Below, piece by piece: positions 37,914 through 61,019 of a stretch of 64,000 nt of DNA. The stretch is from Chrysemys picta bellii. Its lineage: Eukaryota. Under the pieces are notes generated by a model. The model had not been told where the DNA came from and ran no database searches. It worked only from the letters and a program-made list of their open reading frames with translations. Each line of letters starts with the position of its first letter. The first letter of the stretch is position 1. Location of the stretch: NCBI RefSeq assembly GCF_011386835.1, contig NC_088793.1, forward strand, positions 163,246,001 through 163,310,000, read 5' to 3'. Both the position numbers and the translations under genes were made by a program.

Positions 37914-38986
37914 TTCAAAAGTGACTAGTGATTTTTGGACACCTCTGTTATCAGGTGCCCAACTTGAGAGCCCTTTAAAGGGGCTTGATTTTTCTGAGGA
38001 TGGGTGCTTAGCACTTTCTGAGAATCAGTCCCCTTTAAGGGGTCTCAAGTTGGGGACTGTAGCGAGGCGGTGGGCTACCCCACAGCCCCGCTGAGGGCCG
38101 AACCTCCCCTACTACCAACGTGGGCGGAGCCACCGGGTCCGGCACCCGCCCCTCCGAGCATGGCCCCGACCCGGAAGTATAAAAGCCCGCCTGCAGAGCT
38201 CAGTGGAGCCTGGGCTGGCGGAGAGAGCAGACGTCCCTGGCCGAGCTCCCGCTTGGGAAACAGCCGCAGGCCGCGAGCAGCCTGCTGACTCACCGGGCCG
38301 GTCGAGCCTACCTCTCGCCAGGTACCCCAAGGAGGACTGGCCAAGCCTGCCCTATGCCAGCTACCCCGAGGAGGAGCCGAGCCTGCCCCGTGCCAGCTAC
38401 CCCGAGGAGGAGCCAATGCTGGTGGAGAGCACCGACGACACTAAGACGGCCCAGGTACCATACGAGGGGGAGTGTGGAAGTAGCCCGGGGGCAGCCGACC
38501 CCAGTCTGGCTGCTGCACTGCCAGAGCCAATGTCAGTGTGTTGTGGCCAGGATCCCCACTGACAGCAGCGAGTTTCCACCGCTGCTAGGGCCCTGGCTGG
38601 GACGCTGTGGAGTGGCAGGGCCTGCGCGCCCTCCTGCCACCCACTCCTTGGGTGGCAGACTCCCCCTGTTCCCCCTGGCCTAGAGAGGCTGGGTACCTGA
38701 TTGACTATTTGCTACTGACCCAGCCCCTGCTACAAGGCCTGGGCCGCTGTTTGACTATTGATTATTACCCCGCCCTGACCTAGGGCCTGGGCTGCTACAA
38801 ACTCTGACCCAGCCCTTGCTTAAAGGCCTGGGTATTTGCCTGACTGTGTGATTACTGCCCCGCCCTGATTGAGGGCTCGGGGCTCTTTTCTGACTAGCAA
38901 GGCGGTGGGCTACCCCACAGCCCCGCTGAGGGCCGAACCGCGGCCCAAAACTACTACACTGACTCAAATCACTAGTCACTTTTGAA
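37914..38986. mobile_element. Palindromic MITE split by the LTR-like insertion
   Basis: Perfect 21-bp inverted ends TTCAAAAGTGACTAGTGATTT (37914-37934 / 38966-38986). Confidence 0.7.
38058..38958 (+). mobile_element. Solo-LTR-like element (about 900 bp, Gypsy-like)
   Basis: TGTAG...CTACA ends; TATAAAA at 38178; GC/CpG-rich; 36-bp tandem repeat at 38344-38415; no TSD found. Confidence 0.65.
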
Positions 38987-39632: not shown

Positions 39633-40170
39633 GGCCTTGTCTACGCTCCCACAGTAAGTCGACCTAAGTTATGCTACTCTAGTTATGTGAATAATGTATC
39701 TGGAGTTGACGTAGCTTAGATCGATTTATTGCGGTGTCTATACTGCGCTGCGTCGATGGCAGATGCTCTCCTGTCGACTTACCTTACTCTTCTTGTTCTG
39801 GTGGAGTACTGGAGTCGACCGGAGAGCGCTCTGCCGTTGATTTAGCGGGTCTTCACTAGACCCACTAACAGGGCCGGCTCCAGCATTTCTGCCGCCCCAA
39901 GCAAAAAAAAAAAAAAGCCTCGATTGGCGGCAGAAATTGGGGGGAGGAGGGGAAGCTGCAATTGGCAGCGGCAGTTCAGCGGCAGGTCCTTCGCTCCTAG
40001 AGGGAGTGAGGGACCTGCCGCCCCCGAATTGCCACAGGTGCTGCCCCTCTCCCTTGGCCGCCCCAAGCACCTGCTTGTTAAGCTGGTGCCTGGAGCCGGC
40101 CCTGCCCGCTAAATTGATCCTGCTGCATCGATTGCAGTAGTGACGATCTACCGGTAGTGTAGACCTGGCC
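39633..40170. mobile_element. PIF/Harbinger-like MITE (related to 25951-26236) carrying a nested hAT MITE
   Basis: Ends ggccttgtctac / gtagacctggcc. Confidence 0.75.
39869..40104. mobile_element. hAT MITE (CAGGGCCGGC ends)
   Basis: TIR CAGGGCCGGCTCCAG; 8-bp TSD CCCACTAA/CCCGCTAA. Confidence 0.9.
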
Positions 40171-42900: not shown

Positions 42901-45829
42901 ACTGATATAGGGCTCTTACTTAGGCTCCCCTTTTAATCACTTTTATTTATAACAAAACCTTGAATATCAGTTCCAACATGGTTAGCCACCATAAATGATG
43001 TGATAATGAGGATGGAGTATAGGTCACAAGCCTGTAAATATGTGTGAGGAGATGGTGAGCTTAACCTACCAGGTGAAAGAAAGGTTAGTATACCAACTGC
43101 ATGAACACTTCAAAGCATGTAGATAGTTTGCTGCACTAACTTAATTATCTGTGCTATAGATATGTTTGACAAACATATCTATAGCCCAGATACTATTACT
43201 TCACAGTGGGAGATAGCAGAGTGCTTCTGTTTGGTTGGCAGTTTACTGAATCCTTCCTTCTGCTTCCCTGCATTACTCTTTTCAAGGACTTTCCCCCCTC
43301 CTCTTAATCCATTTGATGAATGGAAACTTATTCCTTTCTTGGTAATGGCAGAAAATATTTTAAGGAAGAGGCAGTGTGCGGCCAGATAGGATGGATTTAA
43401 ATGATTCTTAACTGAGACTGATAAGATTTCACTCTTTTTTTTATAAAATCCATTGATAACTGAGCACCTAAGTAGAAGCTGTCTCTCTCTTTTTCCTCTC
43501 TCCCCCCCCCCCCACTTTATTTCTTCACTGAATTGTGTTTTGGAGCCAGTTTTCTTTCTCCATGAAAGAATGCCTCCGATAATTATATAATGCTATAGTG
43601 TGCTTTTGAGCAACTGAATGTTGTGGACTTTTCTGCAAATGGTGTGATCTGAAATGTAAAAAGGGAGCATTACCAACACCACTCATCCCAGCAAAATTGA
43701 TTGAAGAGACCTGTTCTTTGTCACCAAAATGTGGCCTGCTGTAAGGCTGTTGGTAAGCTGTGGGCTTTAATAGGTAGAGACTATGGGGAACCTCTCAGCT
43801 TTTTATCCTTTCCTCTTCTGTAAGGTCTCTTACACAGGAAGGTACAGTTTTTAGATATGGTTATTTTAATACTGATCCTCTGAGGTTGGCAGGTAGATGG
43901 GGAAAGAGAGAAGATCATGACGATATGCTAAAAAAAGCCAAAATGTTCTATATCAATAAAAATGGAGTAATAAAACAAATGAAATGAAATGAATTCATAC
44001 ACAAGGGGACTCCATTTTAGGAAGGCTCTTAATTCCAATGCTAGATTATCCATTATGGAAAAATGAAAAGCATTAACTAAGAGGCACTACAAGTATTCCT
44101 TTAATTCAGTGAATTCACTTGAATTAATTCAGTTGCCAACACTTCTAACCAGAGATAGCCACAGGTAAAATCTAGATTTTTTTTTTTTTCTTTCCCCTGT
44201 ACAACTATGCCTTAGTTACAAACACAGACACAGAGGTTGGATATGTACTCGTCTTTGTACATACAATATATATATATATATAGGTTATATCTGTTGTGTC
44301 AGTAGCCCATGTATACTTAATACTGAATTTTGTTATTCAACAAAGACTCAAAATCCAGAGACACAGGCCAAATTCTGATCTCCGTTACAGTGGTGTAAAT
44401 CTGGAGTAACTCCATTGCCGTTAGTGGAATTACTCCAGATTTCCACAGGTGTAGCTGAGACCAGAACTCGGCTAATGATCAAGTCAGTAATTTTCTGATC
44501 TGAAGATGCAGTTGATAAGGCATGTTTTACTTATATGTTCTGTACTAAATCTAGTGCCTGCCAGTTCTTAAGGAAAGCCTCAGCTAAAATGAAAGTGAAA
44601 CTTTCAGTTTATCCAAGTTTTTTTTTATTTGTTGTGGTTTTTTGTGAGATTGAATTCATAAAGAAACTATTGTATTGTAATAATTCCTACGAGCTTTGGC
44701 TATTTCTTTGGGGGGAAAGTACTGACCTTTCCCTATTTTTAATAAAACCTTTATGGTTTTCAGTTTGCCTCCTCTATGATAGTGCAGGAATTTTTATTTT
44801 GTGTTGATGGTCAGGGAAATTCTATTTATTTCTTCTGTATATAAGAGATCTGAAAAGTCTTAGGGAGGAGGAAAGTAAATCAAATTTATAGGCCTGATTA
44901 TCCTCTCACACTTGTGTAACTGAAAGGAAGATTATGTCTTATGTACTATATTGCCTATACATGCAATGTTACATGGAACAAAATAAGTACATTGTGATCT
45001 ATTAATTTAAGCACAAGACATTTGGAACAAGTTAATAAAAGCAAGCAGTCAATGGTAAATTTATGAGGGGAAATATTGCCCTTTGGTGAACATGTGCCTC
45101 TTCCCTTGCCAGTTAATAGAAGATGTGCATACACCTAAAGGAAGCAGTGTGGTCCCGTGGATGGGACAAAGGACTGAGTTGTGGTTCTGCCACTGATGTT
45201 TTGTAAAGGGCTTTGAGCTCTCTGGATGAAAAGCATTATAAAAGAGTTAAGTAGTATTAAGCCTGCTTTGTTAGATGGTGGGCTTTATTGGTTTTATTTT
45301 TTTATTTTATTTTATGGTTTGTGCTTTGTATGAAAAGAGACTACTAGGAAAGCCCTTTGAGCTTTAGCACTGGCATTTTCCTTTGGCCTCCTTTTTCTTT
45401 CTCATGCCCGAGCTACTGAAAGTTAAAGGACATGGCATTTATTTACACAGAGTAAAGTTACATAAATAACCAGCATATTGTAATAGATCATCATTAACAT
45501 GAACAAATAATTTTATGGATACCTTCAAATACCTCTGAAATAACTCCAGTCCCATCCAATGTCACTATGCAGATGTGACAGGAACAAACACTCTCCCCCC
45601 CTTAGCATTCATTTGTCTGGGACTACTCCTGTGTACTGGAAAAGATCCATCCCAGTCCCTTTTCCAGATCAAGGCTACTTCAGTGACAAACAGACAGAAC
45701 TTCATGGAGGTGACATAAAACTAATGGATAGCACCTAAATTCCATCCACCACAGATCTGACCAGCAATTCCTTACTGTGTCACCCCACATGGCATTGAAA
45801 AGCATAATCTCCAGGGAGTTCTATAAATA

Positions 45830-46160
45830 CAAGCTGAGATCTCTGAGAGCTGATCACTATCTGGAAGGAATAATATGTGCAGTGTATTGTAAGAAATTAC
45901 CAGCTCCCTGGAAAGCTCACAACACAATCTTTCTGCATAGATTTCTCTTCTGTTCTTCTGTATGAACCTTATGCACTTCACCTATCTCCTTGTTTCCTAC
46001 AATATGATGTTGTTGGTCAATGCAGTTTTTTCAAACACCTTCCTAGTAGTCATAGTTTTCTTCTCATTCCTTCCTTAAATGTCAGCCATCATGTCGGAAG
46101 ATAGACTTAGAAAGCAGTGTGTATAATTGATCCCCCATCATTCCCCCTTTTCCTGTAGTT
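45830..46160 (-). pseudogene. SGNH/GDSL hydrolase remnant
   Basis: GKGGMMGDQL (46124-46153), HL/GRNE (46063-46081, cf. HLGGND), LFLPDSDQLS (about 45840-45875, cf. LFRxDGVHLS). Confidence 0.55.
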
Positions 46161-46339
46161 TGGTTTTCTCCAGCTGTGCACCATCATTTTGAAAACTACT
46201 TTTCTATTGCACCCAGGACTCAAACAAATGCCCACAAATCTATTTCTGCTTCCTTGCCTATTGGGTATCTGCTGTAGAGAGAACATAAACATGGAAATAA
46301 CTGCCTGACCTTGTTCCTATTCTGTGCCTCCATTTGTGG

Positions 46340-47010
46340 TTTAACATTGTATAAATTCACCAGAATGCCACCTGTTTTTGCTTAATCCTCTCTTTGGCAA
46401 GTCCAGCTGTGAACTTGAGGAACCAGTATTGTGCCAAAATCTGCTGGGTCAGAACATGTATGGGGGAAAAAAATCCTTTCCTAAAACATTAAATATAAGA
46501 ACCGGATATTGTTCTGGTTCTGACTTGCAGAAGAGGGCCATTCTCCTTTTTAGAATTGCTTAGGAATAGTGAATGTGTAGGCTAATGAGTCATTGAATGT
46601 TATATTATCCTGCAGTTGCATGAGTTCAGCTACTCATTTTTGAAGGAGGCAGTCCATATCAGTGGTCAAGTAGCTCCTCCAAAATGCTATTTGACTAATC
46701 TGAAAAGAAATTGGTCTTGAAAATACCCTTGTCCAGAGTTTCCAGAAAGTCCATAAGCACTTGATGCATGATGGATTCTTTCTTTATCAGGCATCTGCTT
46801 CCCTTTCCTAGCTCAATTCTCCAGCAATTTTTTTTCTTCTGTAGTAAGAGACAAGCAATATATTCCATATGCCACCAAGCTTTGTAAAGAAGCTTACTGC
46901 TGACAATCTCACAGCTGCTAAGGAATAGTCCAGGCCTTGCTTGTAAAGTGACACTAAGCACAAGAGTATGTATTCCATTGGGATTGACCATGTATTTTCA
47001 TTCACCTTTT
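46340..47010 (-). pseudogene. Tyrosine recombinase remnant
   Basis: LVSLYKQGLDYSLAAVRLSAVSFFTKLGG (N-terminal region); DFGT...AGLAKERIK...RWHS at 46350-46442 (cf. FGTHSFRIG..GL....IK..GRWxS), across frameshifts. Confidence 0.65.
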
Positions 47011-47936
47011 TTCCTTCTTGAAGGAAATATGTTAGTGCCTCCTAACTACATGCCTAACAGATGATGGCAGCCACCAATTTCCATAGCAAAGCCCCTTGGC
47101 CACAAAGCATCTAAAAGAAATCTGGAATTGGACAAGTTCATCTTTGCTGCGAGCTCAGCAGCAGATCATCTCAATCAAGAGCAGTGGAAATGACAGACTG
47201 AGCAATTGGCTTAGCAACACTTAAAACCTGTTTGGCCCCGAAGGAAATATGCAGGCGTAAACACTTCAGAATCTAAAACCTTTGATACTTAGGGACAGGT
47301 TTCAAAGGTGGTCAGTGTTCTGGGTGTTCTGCACCTCTGAAAATAACATCCTTAGTTTCTGACCACGGATTGCTTGAACAGCTACTGAAAGAGCACCCTT
47401 CAAAATATGCAGAATGACCTCCAGCTGAGACAAACTTAATATAGCTCCTGCTGGCTCAGCCAGGTGGAACCTTTCCTTTTGGCTCACCCGATTTGCTGCC
47501 CACAGACCATGAAAGTCCCTGGGACTTGGCTGTGACAATGTGCGGGGACACATGACCAATACAGAAACAGGATGGGACACCCTCCTAATTGGTTAAGTCT
47601 AGTCTAGTGTGTGGCCACAAGTTGTCAGATACAACATATTCCTCAGGTGATTCCAGTGGGTGGCCAAATTTGCTTTATAGACAATAGTTTAACGAACATA
47701 ATGTACTTCAGATACGCTCTTTTTAAAACCGTAGCCAGGCCTCTGCATGCTATGGATGCCTGAAATAAACAGCAATGCTGCTTCCTCCTGAAGTATTCTC
47801 ACATAAGTTCACTGATAGATTTTTATCAGCTCCTACAATGCCCTATATTGGAAAGTAACAGTAGCTTGTGAAAAATATGGTTGGGGCTTGTGTGACTTCC
47901 AGGAGGATCTCCCCTATATATGGGATATGAAGAGAT

Positions 47937-49010
47937 ACTTGCAGAACCAGCAGGTTTCATGCACATTTTGTCAGAAACACCTACCAAAATATAGCATGGT
48001 ATCACATCTCCAGAAGCACAGAGCAGCTGGAAATATCTTCTTGTATATTGACTTGTGTTACTCTGATTAAAGGCATTGTTTCTCTCCTGCTGTCAAGCCA
48101 GCTAGCCCCCAGCAGCTGACAAAAATCTCAATCTGCAGCACGTTACCAATGAAGTTAAAATGACCACATGCTTTAAAGGAAAACCTATTGGCTGTTACAA
48201 CCTGCACCAGCAACTGCTTGAACTCACTGGTCCAAGCTCACCCCTAGTGTAACACAACTGAAGTCAATGGTGTTCTGGCAGGTTGAATTCAGTCCACTGA
48301 GTTTATCCATGGGGAGGTTAGAATTCATTTTCCAAGAAAGAACTCAAGACCCTAGTGTCTGTGCTGGACTTGGACCATCTGTTTTTATTTTTTTACTCCA
48401 AATTCATTAGCTACTTCACCAGTGTCTTCTACTTCACTTTCTGATGTGATGGGCCCTCCAGAAACTAACCCAAATTCAAGCCCCAGAGTTGTATACTCTG
48501 ATAAAAGAAGTGGTTATAGAAGGTGCTGCAAAATATTACAGTCCAGGAGTCTGTTTTTATCCAAAAAAATGTAGTTTGTAAATTCAGATTGTCAATGCAA
48601 TCCTGAGAACTAAAACCATATACGTGTTCCAGCAGCAATTGAAAAGCAGATTCCATATGGACCCTTGTCCTGATTGGGATGTTTGACTGCAAGAGCATGC
48701 ACTTGCTTGATTGGAAAGATGCATATGAAACCGAACTCAAAAGAGAGTCGATGTAATCATTAACTGACTCACCTTCTGGATGTGACAAGTGATGAATCAG
48801 CGTAAACTTGCCTGAAGCTTTCTTCGGGACAATACCCACAGGGGAAACCCTCATATGCTCAAGTGGAGCGTTATCAAACAGGCCCATTATTCTCCCCACA
48901 TGCCAGTTCTTTTCTATCTTGCCTCTAACCACCTGAGGACATATAACTGCTGATCTCAGCTTCCTTGCCAACATTTCATCTTGGGGCCTGAGTAAGATGG
49001 TTTAAACCCT
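47937..49010 (-). pseudogene. Ngaro/DIRS-type reverse transcriptase remnant
   Basis: ORF 48465-48974 GLFDNAPLEHMRVSPVGIVPKKASGKFTLIHHLSHPEGESVNDYID...ESAFQLL; downstream GHFNFIGNV (48139-48165), IRVT (48056-48067) and PAGSAS (47937-47954, cf. RNase H DAAGS). Confidence 0.85.
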
Positions 49011-49499
49011 CCACAAAACCTGTACACAGCAATTGGGTGTGTTGTCAGCCGATTTCAACAACCAGGAAAACATTTTATCTGCCCTCACTGGAATTTATGC
49101 TCTTTGCAGGCCCCTTTAATCAACTCTTGGCTTTTTCCACTGTCTTGCTTTGATTTGGATGACTGCTTGAAGCACCTGCTAATGGCCTGGAGCATTTATG
49201 CCTAAATTTGCAGTTTCTGTACCACTCACAATCAAACTGTTAGTAAACAGCCTTCTGGAGCACCTGCTGCATTATTTGGGGCTAGGAGTCTGTTCTGTTT
49301 GCTGATGAAAGCATTTTGTACAATGCTGTCTTTCTCTACCCCATCCCAGTCCATCCCATCCTCCACCTAAATTGCACGCTGTACCTCAGCCACACATTGG
49401 CCTTAAAAGTAACATCAGAATTCTTGATCTTCTCCAGATACTTGAATAATGCGCAGGATTTTTCCAGGATATTAGGGTAATGGGAGTGGTACAACTATA

Positions 49500-49720
49500 T
49501 AATAACAATCTAGGTCTTATACTTGTCATCAGTAGATTGCTAAGCACTTTACAAAGGCGGTCAGTATCTTTATTCCCATTTTACTTATAGGGAAACCGAG
49601 GCACAGAGCAGAGAATAACTTTCCGAAGGTGATGCTCTAGGCCAGTGGCAGTTCCAGGAACAGAACCTAGATCTCCTGATTCTCAGTTCATTGCTCTATT
49701 CACTAGGCAACACTGCCTCT
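49500..49720 (-). mobile_element. MIR-like CORE-SINE, near full length
   Basis: Tail aagcactttacaaagg, core cccattttacttatagggaaaccgaggcacagag, reverse tRNA-like head. Confidence 0.7.
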
Positions 49721-50385
49721 AGATAGACATGCAGTGAAGGAAAGAAAAAAAAATCCTAGAAGCCTATAGAAAATCCCTGGTCTCTTTTCCCCAGGTAATG
49801 ATCGCTCACATCAAAGCTGCTGTCTATTGGTGATTATCTTCACTGCTTTTGGGATTCTTTTGTGCCAGTCTCCTACATGTATCTGCTAGATCTTTTACCT
49901 CCTCTTTATCATGCATAAGCAAGAATATATGGTTGAGCTGCGTACACTGTATTTTCTCATTCATATCACCTGGCAACCCTAAGTTGGACTAACTATGCAC
50001 AAGACTTCACAGGTATCATGGTCCAACAGGGCAACTGAAACTGTGCTCCTTGTTCTTTCTCTAGTGCATCAGGTTTCCTAGAACCCTGTTCTATGCCTAC
50101 AACATTGACATGGGATTTCTCCCTCTAAAAGAATCATTTATTTCCTCTGTTAGAATAACTGCTAACAGCAGTTACTGAAGAAGCACAAGCATTGGGTTTG
50201 TCTGTTTACACCTACGTTACCTGCCAGTCTCATTATCAGAAAGATTATGCTTTTCCCCATCAAGTTTTATTCCTTAATTCAGTCGCATCATGCCTGCCTC
50301 CTACCTTCTATGTTGATGGAAGTGCCATTAGTGCAATGTAGGAGTCCCCTCAGTACCTACATAATATCTTCCCACCTTCTTGTTA

Positions 50386-50571
50386 TTCCTGGGGGAATTC
50401 TGCACCAAAAAAATTAAAAATTCTGTGCACAATATTTTAAAATTCTGCATATTTTATTTGTCAAAATAACAGAACATCATCACACTGGTTTCAATTATTT
50501 TGGAAATTTATTTCAAATACTTGACATCAAGTATGTCTGTAATAATAAACAACAAAAAAGATTCAGAAAAT

Positions 50572-50603
<32 letters not shown>

Positions 50604-51632
50604 ATAAATGGATTCTTTACTAGGCATATTAATACAGAACTTTGAGCAATAATTCATTTAAACTACAATACAGAAATGTATTTTCCACATGCCTCAGAAA
50701 CAGTGCAAAGGCTTGGGGGAGTCAGGGATACAGGGCCGGCTACAGGCACCAGCTTACCAAGCAGGTGCTTGGGGCGGCCACTTCGGAGAGGGGCGGCACA
50801 TTCAGCTGTTCGGCAGCAATTCGGCGGACGGTCCCTCACTCCTGCTCGGAGCGAAGGACCTCCCGCTGAATTGCCGCCGCAGATCGCGATCGCAGCTTTT
50901 TTGTTTTGTTTTTTTGTTTGTTTGTTTGTTTGTTTGGCTGCTTGGGGCGGCCAAAACCCTGGAGCCAGCCCTGCAGGGGTAATAGAGGAGCTGAGGGAGA
51001 GGGAAGTAATTGCTAGGAAGGAGCCTGGGAGTGAACCTGGAGGATTGTTGGGTGTGGGTGGGAGAAGTATGGAGCAGGGCTTTTTTGGGAGGTGGGGAGG
51101 GATTCTGAGGGAGTTAAATAACCTCCCCCATGCAGACCCTTGCTGACCCCTACCTTCCCCCATTCTATCAGGTGCATCTGCCTTGTCCCCATGTGGTCCT
51201 GCACCCCCATTCAGCCACCCTCTTCCCCCCCCATTCCCATGTGGCCCTGTACCTCTACTCCCATTCAGCCCCGGCTCAGTGCTGTCACCCCACTAGTTGT
51301 TCTGAACCTCAGTTGATGTGCCCCCTTCCCCGTAGCCCTGTGTGCCTCACTCTGTCTATCTTCCCCATATCCTGTGCCTCCTCACCTGGCCCCGTGAGCA
51401 GGGCGCTGTGAGGAATGCAGCCACTGCCCCCTCCCTGTCCACGGCTGGCTGCTCTGGCCAGTGAGCCAACAGCCCTCTCTTTTGGTGACACAGCAGCCCC
51501 TGATGAGCGAAAAGTGTAACTGCAGCATCTCTCTGACAGAATCTATTTTCTGCAGAGAAAAAAATCTGGGGTGGGGTGGGGGGACGGACATGAATTCTGC
51601 ACGTGTGCAATGGCACAGAATTCCCCCAGGAG
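50386..51632. mobile_element. TA-flanked non-autonomous DNA transposon (Tc1/mariner-like)
   Basis: 17-bp TIR (C/T)TCCTGGGGGAATTCTG; TA at 50384-50385 and 51633-51634. Confidence 0.7.
50731..50973. mobile_element. hAT MITE (same family as 39869-40104, opposite orientation), nested
   Basis: Ends cagggccggct / agccagccctg; TSD CAGGGATA/CAGGGGTA. Confidence 0.85.
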
Positions 51633-60799: not shown

Positions 60800-61019
60800 A
60801 GTGTGGCCCCCGTGGGTAGAGTGCCTGACTAGGACTCAGGAGGACCTGGGTTTTATTCCCAGCTCTGCCCCGGCCTGCTGTGTGAGCTTGGGCATGTTAC
60901 TTCTCTTCTCTTCTCCTCTCTTCTCTTCTCTTCTCCTCTGTTTTCAGTTTACATTTCTGTAAAATGGGGGTAGTAATACTGACCTCCTCTGTAAAGTGCT
61001 TTGAGATCTGCTGATTAAA
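60800..61019 (+). mobile_element. MIR-like SINE with an internal (CTCTT)n expansion; tail interrupted by a PLE
   Basis: tRNA-like head gtggccccgtgggtagag..ggacctgggttttattccc, CORE motif, tail gtaaagtgctttgagatc. Confidence 0.75.

Follow-up and report, generated by a model that had tools for sequence, protein, structure and literature searches.

A single, long-dead retrotransposon copy of the Ngaro type (DIRS order) lies on the minus strand, between about 49.5 and 45.8 kb, of a 64,000-nucleotide (nt) window of the Chrysemys picta bellii genome (contig NC_088793.1, positions 163,246,001 to 163,310,000; positions below count from the first letter of this window). We give a probability of about 0.9 to this reading, in which the copy belongs to the animal branch where an SGNH hydrolase open reading frame (ORF) is usual and has the layout gag, reverse transcriptase (RT)/RNase H, overlapping tyrosine recombinase (YR) and probable SGNH. 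Domain profiles were built from relatives and aligned to the window DNA with frameshifts allowed, and the decoys were stretches of equal length taken elsewhere in the window, from either strand and also in reversed form. Against these decoys the gag C-terminus, the RT fingers, the RT palm with the start of the thumb and the N-terminal half of the YR are firm, and the C-termini of RNase H and YR are marginal on their own (Table 1). With a coding span of ~3.7 kb the copy is nearly complete, and it is old, in agreement with the initial annotation of this stretch, which had proposed an old, near-complete Ngaro element.

The RT fingers carry the clearest signal, with 127.7 bits at 49,091-48,633 and none of 332 decoys as high. 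A search with the RT ORF matched seven RT proteins (best E 1.2e-22), the stretch 48,986-48,633 aligning at up to 47% identity, and the best alignment of the fingers showed 47% identity over 119 amino acids (aa) with an E value of 9e-26. The initial annotation had described RT as the only obvious piece among the ORFs, and indeed the only ORF of the element longer than 110 aa is that at 48,465-49,001 on the minus strand. Upstream of RT lies a gag-like ORF1 that the initial annotation lacked; its C-terminus also gave tblastn matches to the ORF1 of intact relatives (E 0.001-0.05). With this gag part reaching 49,513 (44 bits, 0/332 decoys), the element extends beyond the start at ~49,260 first given for it. 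For the N-terminal half of the YR, no decoy out of 332 was as high in either of two settings, hhalign gave a probability of 86% (E 4.9e-6), and in the ESM Atlas the third match, at 0.95, was a cluster with PF02899 on 26% of its members. The whole YR domain likewise exceeded all decoys (0/204 and 0/272 as high). The C-terminal half of the YR was matched by between 6/320 and 109/332 decoys.

Table 1. Features of the Ngaro-type copy and its immediate surroundings, in the direction of the element (decoy values are the numbers scoring as high).
Feature	Position	Strand	Remarks
Candidate further N-terminal gag piece	49827..49976	-	Best gag N-terminal match, 14.4 bits; decoys 29/332 and 138/332
High-copy repeat inserted in gag	49515..49710 (limits approximate)		75% over 85 nt to 60,932-61,015, E 1e-8
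gag-like ORF1 C-terminus, degenerate Cys/His finger	49156..49513	-	44.0 bits; decoys 0/332, 0/332 and 0/508
RT N-terminus and fingers	48624..49091	-	Least decayed part; from 48,986 on, 118 codons free of stops and frameshifts
RT palm and thumb start	48272..48638	-	Decoys 0/332; 0 and 2/332; 3/572; 3, 5 and 0/616
RT thumb/connection	47980..48228	-	Collinear on visual inspection; no significance by itself
Candidate RNase H N-terminal motif PAGSAS	47937..47966	-	Block score 2.0; rival site 47,795-47,706
Excess of ~400 nt inside RNase H	47460..47900 (limits undefined)		Landmark spacing ~757 vs 345 nt
RNase H C-terminal part	47120..47423 (core 47,272-47,192)	-	ISFGAKQV..IAQS
YR	46347..47139	-	Firm for the SAM-like N-terminal half (core 46,999-46,859); strong decay and a deficit of ~115 nt in the catalytic half
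SGNH/GDSL hydrolase remnant (candidate)	45788..46239	-	Best matches in expected place, not significant
Weak direct-repeat pair at expected B1/B2	45,304-45,513 / 44,819-45,023		124/224 identical columns (55%), AT-rich

That these parts belong together was supported by a chained profile from which the RT fingers had been removed, giving 180.0 as compared with 127.0 +/- 8.9 for decoys (0/144 as high); the expected domain order was the best among 24 permutations, with the runner-up at 160.6. When columns were shuffled block by block, the true score was equaled in 0/60 cases for both the RT palm and the N-half of the YR, in 3/60 for the RNase H C-terminus, in 4/60 for both the RNase H N-terminus and the YR C-half, in 8/60 for the thumb and in 9/60 for SGNH. 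Unrelated fragments lying side by side, that is a lone RT piece with chance motifs or separate insertions, would suit the weakness of several downstream parts taken singly and the very uneven preservation of the whole; with gag, RT palm and the YR N-half each significant, on the same strand and in the order and spacing of the family, this explanation is nevertheless very improbable.

Landmark spacings offered a further comparison of the single Ngaro-type copy with its intact relatives, the values being, in order, 409 vs 444-447, ~428 vs 387-390, ~757 vs 345, 210 vs 215, 614 vs 723-735 and 515 vs 526-751 nt, in a table where the motifs of L008 and L036 were mis-picked for some intervals. From these it follows that RNase H contains ~400 extra bases and that there is no room for a methyltransferase before the YR, the distance from the end of RNase H to the YR landmark (210 vs 215 nt) differing little from that in the relatives. 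A methyltransferase profile gave no signal after RNase H (261/332 and 143/164 decoys as high; 180.9 for an inserted block vs 183.7 for its shuffled form). Because a methyltransferase that had decayed could easily escape such a search, its absence is argued more strongly by the spacing. The YR thus directly follows and overlaps RT/RNase H with no methyltransferase in between, the Ngaro layout already recognized in the initial annotation. According to the available parts of PMC9210276 and PMC3783388, Ngaro elements are characterized by split direct repeats (A1..B1-A2-B2) and by RT/RNase H followed by YR without a methyltransferase.

The relatives were gathered by aligning five RT matches and retrieving 80 metagenome loci and 9 genome-bin loci. 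The long ORFs of these 89 loci encode RT/RNase H, YR and then, in many, SGNH; this order was checked by Pfam on three loci (RVT_1, Phage_integrase, Lipase_GDSL_2). None of the 64 relatives with a YR end showed a methyltransferase-like match, and 16 of the 31 with long flanks had split direct repeats in the order A1..B1-A2-B2. In viral contigs, no relative was found among 110 pattern matches and another search gave no matches. Among 171 proteins the best single matches were P0010 (Bombina bombina XP_053563915.1) with 147 bits and P0014 (Lissotriton helveticus XP_078537286.1) with 139 bits. In the newt protein P0014, an endonuclease/exonuclease/phosphatase domain is joined to the Ngaro-type RT, so that it is probably a chimeric gene model. 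Bacterial genome bins (L081-L089 and L090-L109, e.g. Sedimenticola metagenome-assembled genomes) contain whole Ngaro-type and DIRS1-like retrotransposons, most likely as contamination from eukaryotic hosts, which explains the annotation of P0002 as bacterial.

For placement of the RT, a motif scan gave 20 loci (a first DIRS1-type DNA pattern had given no matches), from which 11 ORFs with a long tail after RNase H served as the DIRS1-like set. The Ngaro-type and DIRS1-type groups were both defined by architecture rather than by named Repbase entries, the former by split direct repeats and the lack of a methyltransferase, the latter by a methyltransferase-like tail and inverted repeats; the DIRS1-like label was given on the DLFA motif in 9/17 listed ORFs, inverted repeats in 4/20 loci and Pfam Dam in 2/11 proteins. 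The window RT scored 127.5, 141.0 and 129.6 bits on three equally sized Ngaro-type profiles as compared with 20.0 on the DIRS1-type profile, and shared 26-47% identity with Ngaro-type rows vs 12-21% with DIRS1-like rows. In an RT tree of 118 columns, the window sequence fell on the Ngaro side of a branch with 100/99 support, with no supported sister (L090 was left out of the 61-row alignment for its gaps). In approximately unbiased (AU) tests on 26 of 60 rows, nesting of the window RT within the DIRS1-like rows was rejected (p-AU 0.014 and 0.00013). The window RT as sister to all eight DIRS1-like rows was not rejected (p 0.235), so that it may branch basally on the Ngaro side. The profile scores, identities and tree support membership of the window RT in the Ngaro clade. 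The profile of the relatives' RT also matches Ty3 RT in the PDB at an E value of 1e-6, whereas the window ORF matches Ngaro-type proteins at 1e-22 and is followed by a YR. A DIRS1-type RT with a methyltransferase tail was tried and rejected.

A related alternative is a DIRS1-like or PAT-like element from which the methyltransferase was deleted. As neither split nor inverted repeats are readable, terminal structure has no discriminating power here, PAT-like elements were not sampled by name, and the AU test joining the window to all DIRS1-like rows was not rejected. The scores and identities given above, the rejection of nesting and an RNase H to YR spacing within 5 nt of that in Ngaro-type relatives all argue in the other direction, making such an origin extremely improbable.

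For the RNase H of the Ngaro-type copy the results were mixed. The motifs earlier reported on the minus strand are present where they were placed (PAGSAS at 47,954, ISFGAKQV at 47,248-47,225 and IAQS at 47,206), with different standing. The C-terminal piece showed weak to moderate support, with a tblastn match to L029 at an E value of 0.014, 0, 2 and 18 of 572 decoys as high with a closer profile, and 16/332, 59/332, 180/332 and 70/708 with a broad profile. PAGSAS is plausible, its distance to the KT.GP motif (the ~428 nt given above) fitting that in intact relatives, but it is indistinguishable from chance: 81 of 228 decoys were as high for the N-terminal part of RNase H, and a motif-only profile favored the rival site. 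The thumb just upstream gave decoy values of 18/228, 121/228, 123, 100 and 10/616, and 147/488. The excess bases inside RNase H are probably old insertions. Contig depth was raised in bins 47,238-47,771 and 48,039-48,305, and this is the sole support for two suspected hairpin insertions (48,220-48,296 and 47,285-47,365), which folded no better than shuffled sequences (z 0.59 and -0.52) and had no second copy in the window at three mismatches.

The stretch behind the YR is a probable SGNH hydrolase remnant, judged from sequence comparison and position. In most settings its top-scoring match terminates where it should, both in the DNA and in the profile columns (45,823-45,788), its distance from the YR end (515 nt) lies close to that in relatives, and of the 14 closest relatives that could be assessed, 13 carry SGNH behind the YR. 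The alternative, in which the Ngaro fossil ends after the YR and the SGNH-like stretch is a chance similarity, draws on decoy values of 16/292, 17/292, 25/292, 4/364, 68/340 and 55/340 (1%-20% of decoys as high), on a hhalign probability of 0.2% with no Pfam match, on 58 SGNH proteins, of which the 25 with the highest scores all lacked a convincing match in place, and on the more distant loci, of which only 4 of 39 have SGNH behind the YR and 35 do not. In view of the close relatives, the match end and the fitting spacing, chance similarity is considered rather unlikely, and an SGNH remnant is retained as the probable reading. Three salamander proteins found with the Ngaro-type alignment (P0210, P0211 and P0213, from Lissotriton and Pleurodeles) have an SGNH domain fused to an unrelated N-terminal region and lack the catalytic His motif; they are 79% identical over 358 aa and possibly represent a domesticated Ngaro SGNH gene.

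The ends of the element are poorly defined. At the expected B1/B2 site, one weak direct-repeat pair was found, a score reached by 2-5 of 200 Markov controls and by 4, 29 and 22 of 93 real neighboring pairs; no A1 partner was found upstream for this pair and no A1/A2 was detected, so that the check for split direct repeats proposed in the initial annotation yielded this pair alone. Decay could have erased the repeats. On the 5' side, the repeat inserted in gag, which resembles a short interspersed nuclear element (SINE), lies in a bin (49,374-49,640) with contig depths of 5,421x and 7,195x vs a unique depth of ~33x in sequencing run X15; the candidate piece beyond it is possibly a gag remnant severed from the rest by this SINE-like insertion. 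Further upstream, nested, very high-copy repeats at 50,380-51,500 may have removed or hidden the 5' end; they and those at 39,869-40,104 reach contig depths of up to 8.6e5, and a related copy sits inverted near 40 kb.

Part of the 45.3-49.7 kb region was contained in 20 of 24 sequencing runs, 16 of them with half or more of its words, covering six organism labels and eight studies; the copy is shared by at least six labelled organisms and taken as fixed in several related ones. No RNA run is on record among those with the region, and in run X16, which is RNA by guess only, contigs cover the element and its flanks alike and so say nothing on expression either way. In run X15 (organism E), one 5,162-nt contig covers 44,385-49,555 and differs from the window at 56 letters, with a further 23 gap letters. 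Since this contig spans the copy in a related organism, the element inserted before these organisms diverged. Depth in this run was flat at 33-36x over 45,369-47,237 at an 80% likeness threshold, which together with the spanning contig indicates that the 3' half has no close paralogue in organism E. At 48,573-48,839, the border of fingers and palm, runs X14 and X15 show additional contig depth, due to a small repeat or else to a paralogous Ngaro piece with >=80% likeness. No age in years is given because the per-region divergence likelihood ran to its lower bound and was not used.

Every domain of the copy contains stops or frameshifts, and the catalytic motifs YLDD of RT (unrecognizable in the palm), HSFR of YR and D-x-x-H of SGNH are not kept in the alignments; on both grounds the copy is dead. 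This matches the earlier description of an element broken by stops, frameshifts and insertions, the last now comprising the high-copy repeat in gag and probably the extra bases in RNase H. The earlier claim of four domains in order held firmly for the RT fingers and palm and the N-half of YR, marginally for the C-terminal parts of RNase H and YR, and without significance for SGNH.

Several observations weigh against the interpretation as one Ngaro-type copy. SGNH, the thumb and the RNase H N-terminus are not significant singly, the RNase H C-terminus and YR C-half are so in some settings only, and a word search with the YR piece gave 117 candidates, none at E <= 1. Pfam called no window piece RT, YR or SGNH: ten natural ORFs gave only sub-threshold matches to HELP and DUF591, and six frames with stops read through gave nothing. 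The limits of the segments used in the decoy tests were picked after inspection of the data, and the marginal decoy values are therefore generous. Split direct repeats were not detected in the window, and the 16 relatives that have them all come from one record series (WLWD) and lack SGNH. The RT tree comprises 118 columns only, contains no named references and no PAT, VIPER, long terminal repeat (LTR) or non-LTR rows, and leaves the sister position to the DIRS1-like rows unrejected. Finally, the uneven preservation of the copy is not explained by neutral decay.

This unevenness was quantified from near-invariant columns, of which the RT fingers keep 35/47, the palm 17/40 and the three following regions 8/23, 4/21 and 11/40 (40/124 in total downstream of the fingers), with decoy means of 13.3, 9.0, 6.6, 5.4 and 13.5 for the same regions; the gag C-terminus keeps 11/17. 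In simulations of uniform decay the gap was at most 0.24 vs 0.42 observed, and was never reached in 48 simulations at each of three decay levels. The excess retention of the fingers points to local constraint, to gene conversion from a younger copy or to regional differences in mutation. One form of constraint would be host selection on the 5' part (the gag C-terminus and RT fingers, ~49.5-48.6 kb), preserving it as an exon or non-coding element during the decay of the remainder. Beyond the retained columns and the simulations, a precedent is found in the constrained ancient DIRS and Ngaro fossils described in the available part of PMC9004415. The 5' stretch was, however, not significantly more conserved than the rest against organism F (of 42 differences over 4,499 nt, 3 fall within its 655 nt; p 0.12), the 5'/3' boundary was picked after the fact, and no host exon was found nearby among the 145 of 598 window ORFs scanned with Pfam, which gave two sub-threshold matches, none convincing. 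The gap itself is inflated because downstream parts at near-decoy retention (for YR, a decoy mean of 13.5 of 40 columns) are affected by misalignment, and the simulated elements were themselves in the profiles and none had decayed as far as the 3' part. Host selection on the 5' part is accordingly judged unlikely, and so is the wider scenario in which an Ngaro element of nearly full length inserted before the reptile radiation, with ~0.9 kb co-opted as a constrained regulatory element or exon and the other 2.8 kb neutral. If true, it would provide an internal control inside one element for dating and measuring exaptation, and would tie the short Ngaro fragments of mammals to a whole element.

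Judging from the literature on the family, the active ancestor of the Ngaro-type copy would have been transcribed, and its gag-like protein would have packaged the transcript. RT/RNase H would then have copied this into complementary DNA (cDNA) by way of strand transfers from one split direct repeat to another, and its own YR would have inserted the cDNA; the present copy would encode no working enzyme, with most of its length decaying neutrally. For Dictyostelium DIRS-1, linear single-stranded cDNA was reportedly seen in one study (PMC7192593). The available text of PMC3783388 describes for the family a gag-like ORF1, an RT that makes cDNA, an RNase H that removes the template and a YR that inserts the product; that of PMC6681497 models Ngaro replication as annealing between repeat copies; and in that of PMC9210276 the function of SGNH in Ngaro elements is unproven.

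Among known systems, the window copy resembles Xenopus DIRS-53_XT and DIRS-54_XT, which, as far as described in the same part of PMC9210276, have a gag-like ORF, RT/RNase H and an overlapping YR without a methyltransferase. They carry an extra SGNH ORF behind the YR where the window has a candidate only, and their ORFs are intact and the split direct repeats of DIRS-53 100% identical, whereas the window copy is broken throughout (compared by description). The amphibian proteins P0010, P0014 and P0051 (the last from Ranitomeya imitator, CAJ0941279.1) are the best or near-best RT matches, with 42-44% identity over the fingers, and P0051 has a YR part behind RT/RNase H, as in the window; unlike the window they are largely open frames, and an exact sister relation is unsupported by the tree. 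As the closest named matches, these amphibian proteins would fit vertical inheritance, which the tree does not resolve. DIRS1-like elements of the Dictyostelium DIRS-1 type share the order gag, RT/RNase H, YR, but have, in the portions of PMC3783388 and PMC6681497 available, inverted repeats and, behind RNase H, a methyltransferase, and the window RT reaches the 20 bits given above on them.

In the 64-kb window as a whole, the DNA is vertebrate-like and non-coding, with no Rfam match, and its short repeats appear turtle-like. A codon-level fossil model was overwhelmed by base composition (decoys of up to 100 bits) and was not used. The most protein-like composition was that of an ORF of 155 codons at 38,095-38,562 on the plus strand, which has short internal repeats and no Pfam match and is probably part of another repeat. 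An assembly gap of 181 N occupies 34,363-34,543. Near the 3' side of the element, a long hairpin repeat at 44,367-44,472 (arms 79% complementary, folding z -6.2) lies in a bin with thousands-fold contig depth and resembles a miniature inverted-repeat transposable element.

Amphibian SGNH-bearing Ngaro elements (PMC9210276) and amniote Ngaro fossils (PMC9004415; bioRxiv 10.1101/2021.01.25.428050) are already described in the available parts of these publications. The latter two report 28 pre-amniote Ngaro and 37 DIRS fossils in human and 63,301 novel transposable element (TE) fossils in painted turtle; like them, the window copy is a decayed, unannotated remnant of a YR retrotransposon, but the amniote DIRS fossils tabulated there measure 144-235 bp, as compared with ~3.7 kb and four to five domains here. 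A description of this locus or of a multi-domain reptile Ngaro fossil was not found in the literature searched, which covered the articles and not their supplements, where the locus may be listed. The element is therefore ordinary in kind and an unusually complete fossil, and it would gain in significance only if host selection were shown to act on its less decayed 5' part. For a TE superfamily known in amniotes mainly from short pieces, the copy is an additional multi-domain example, and it lends support to the published view of tetrapod ancestors harboring YR retrotransposons that later died out.

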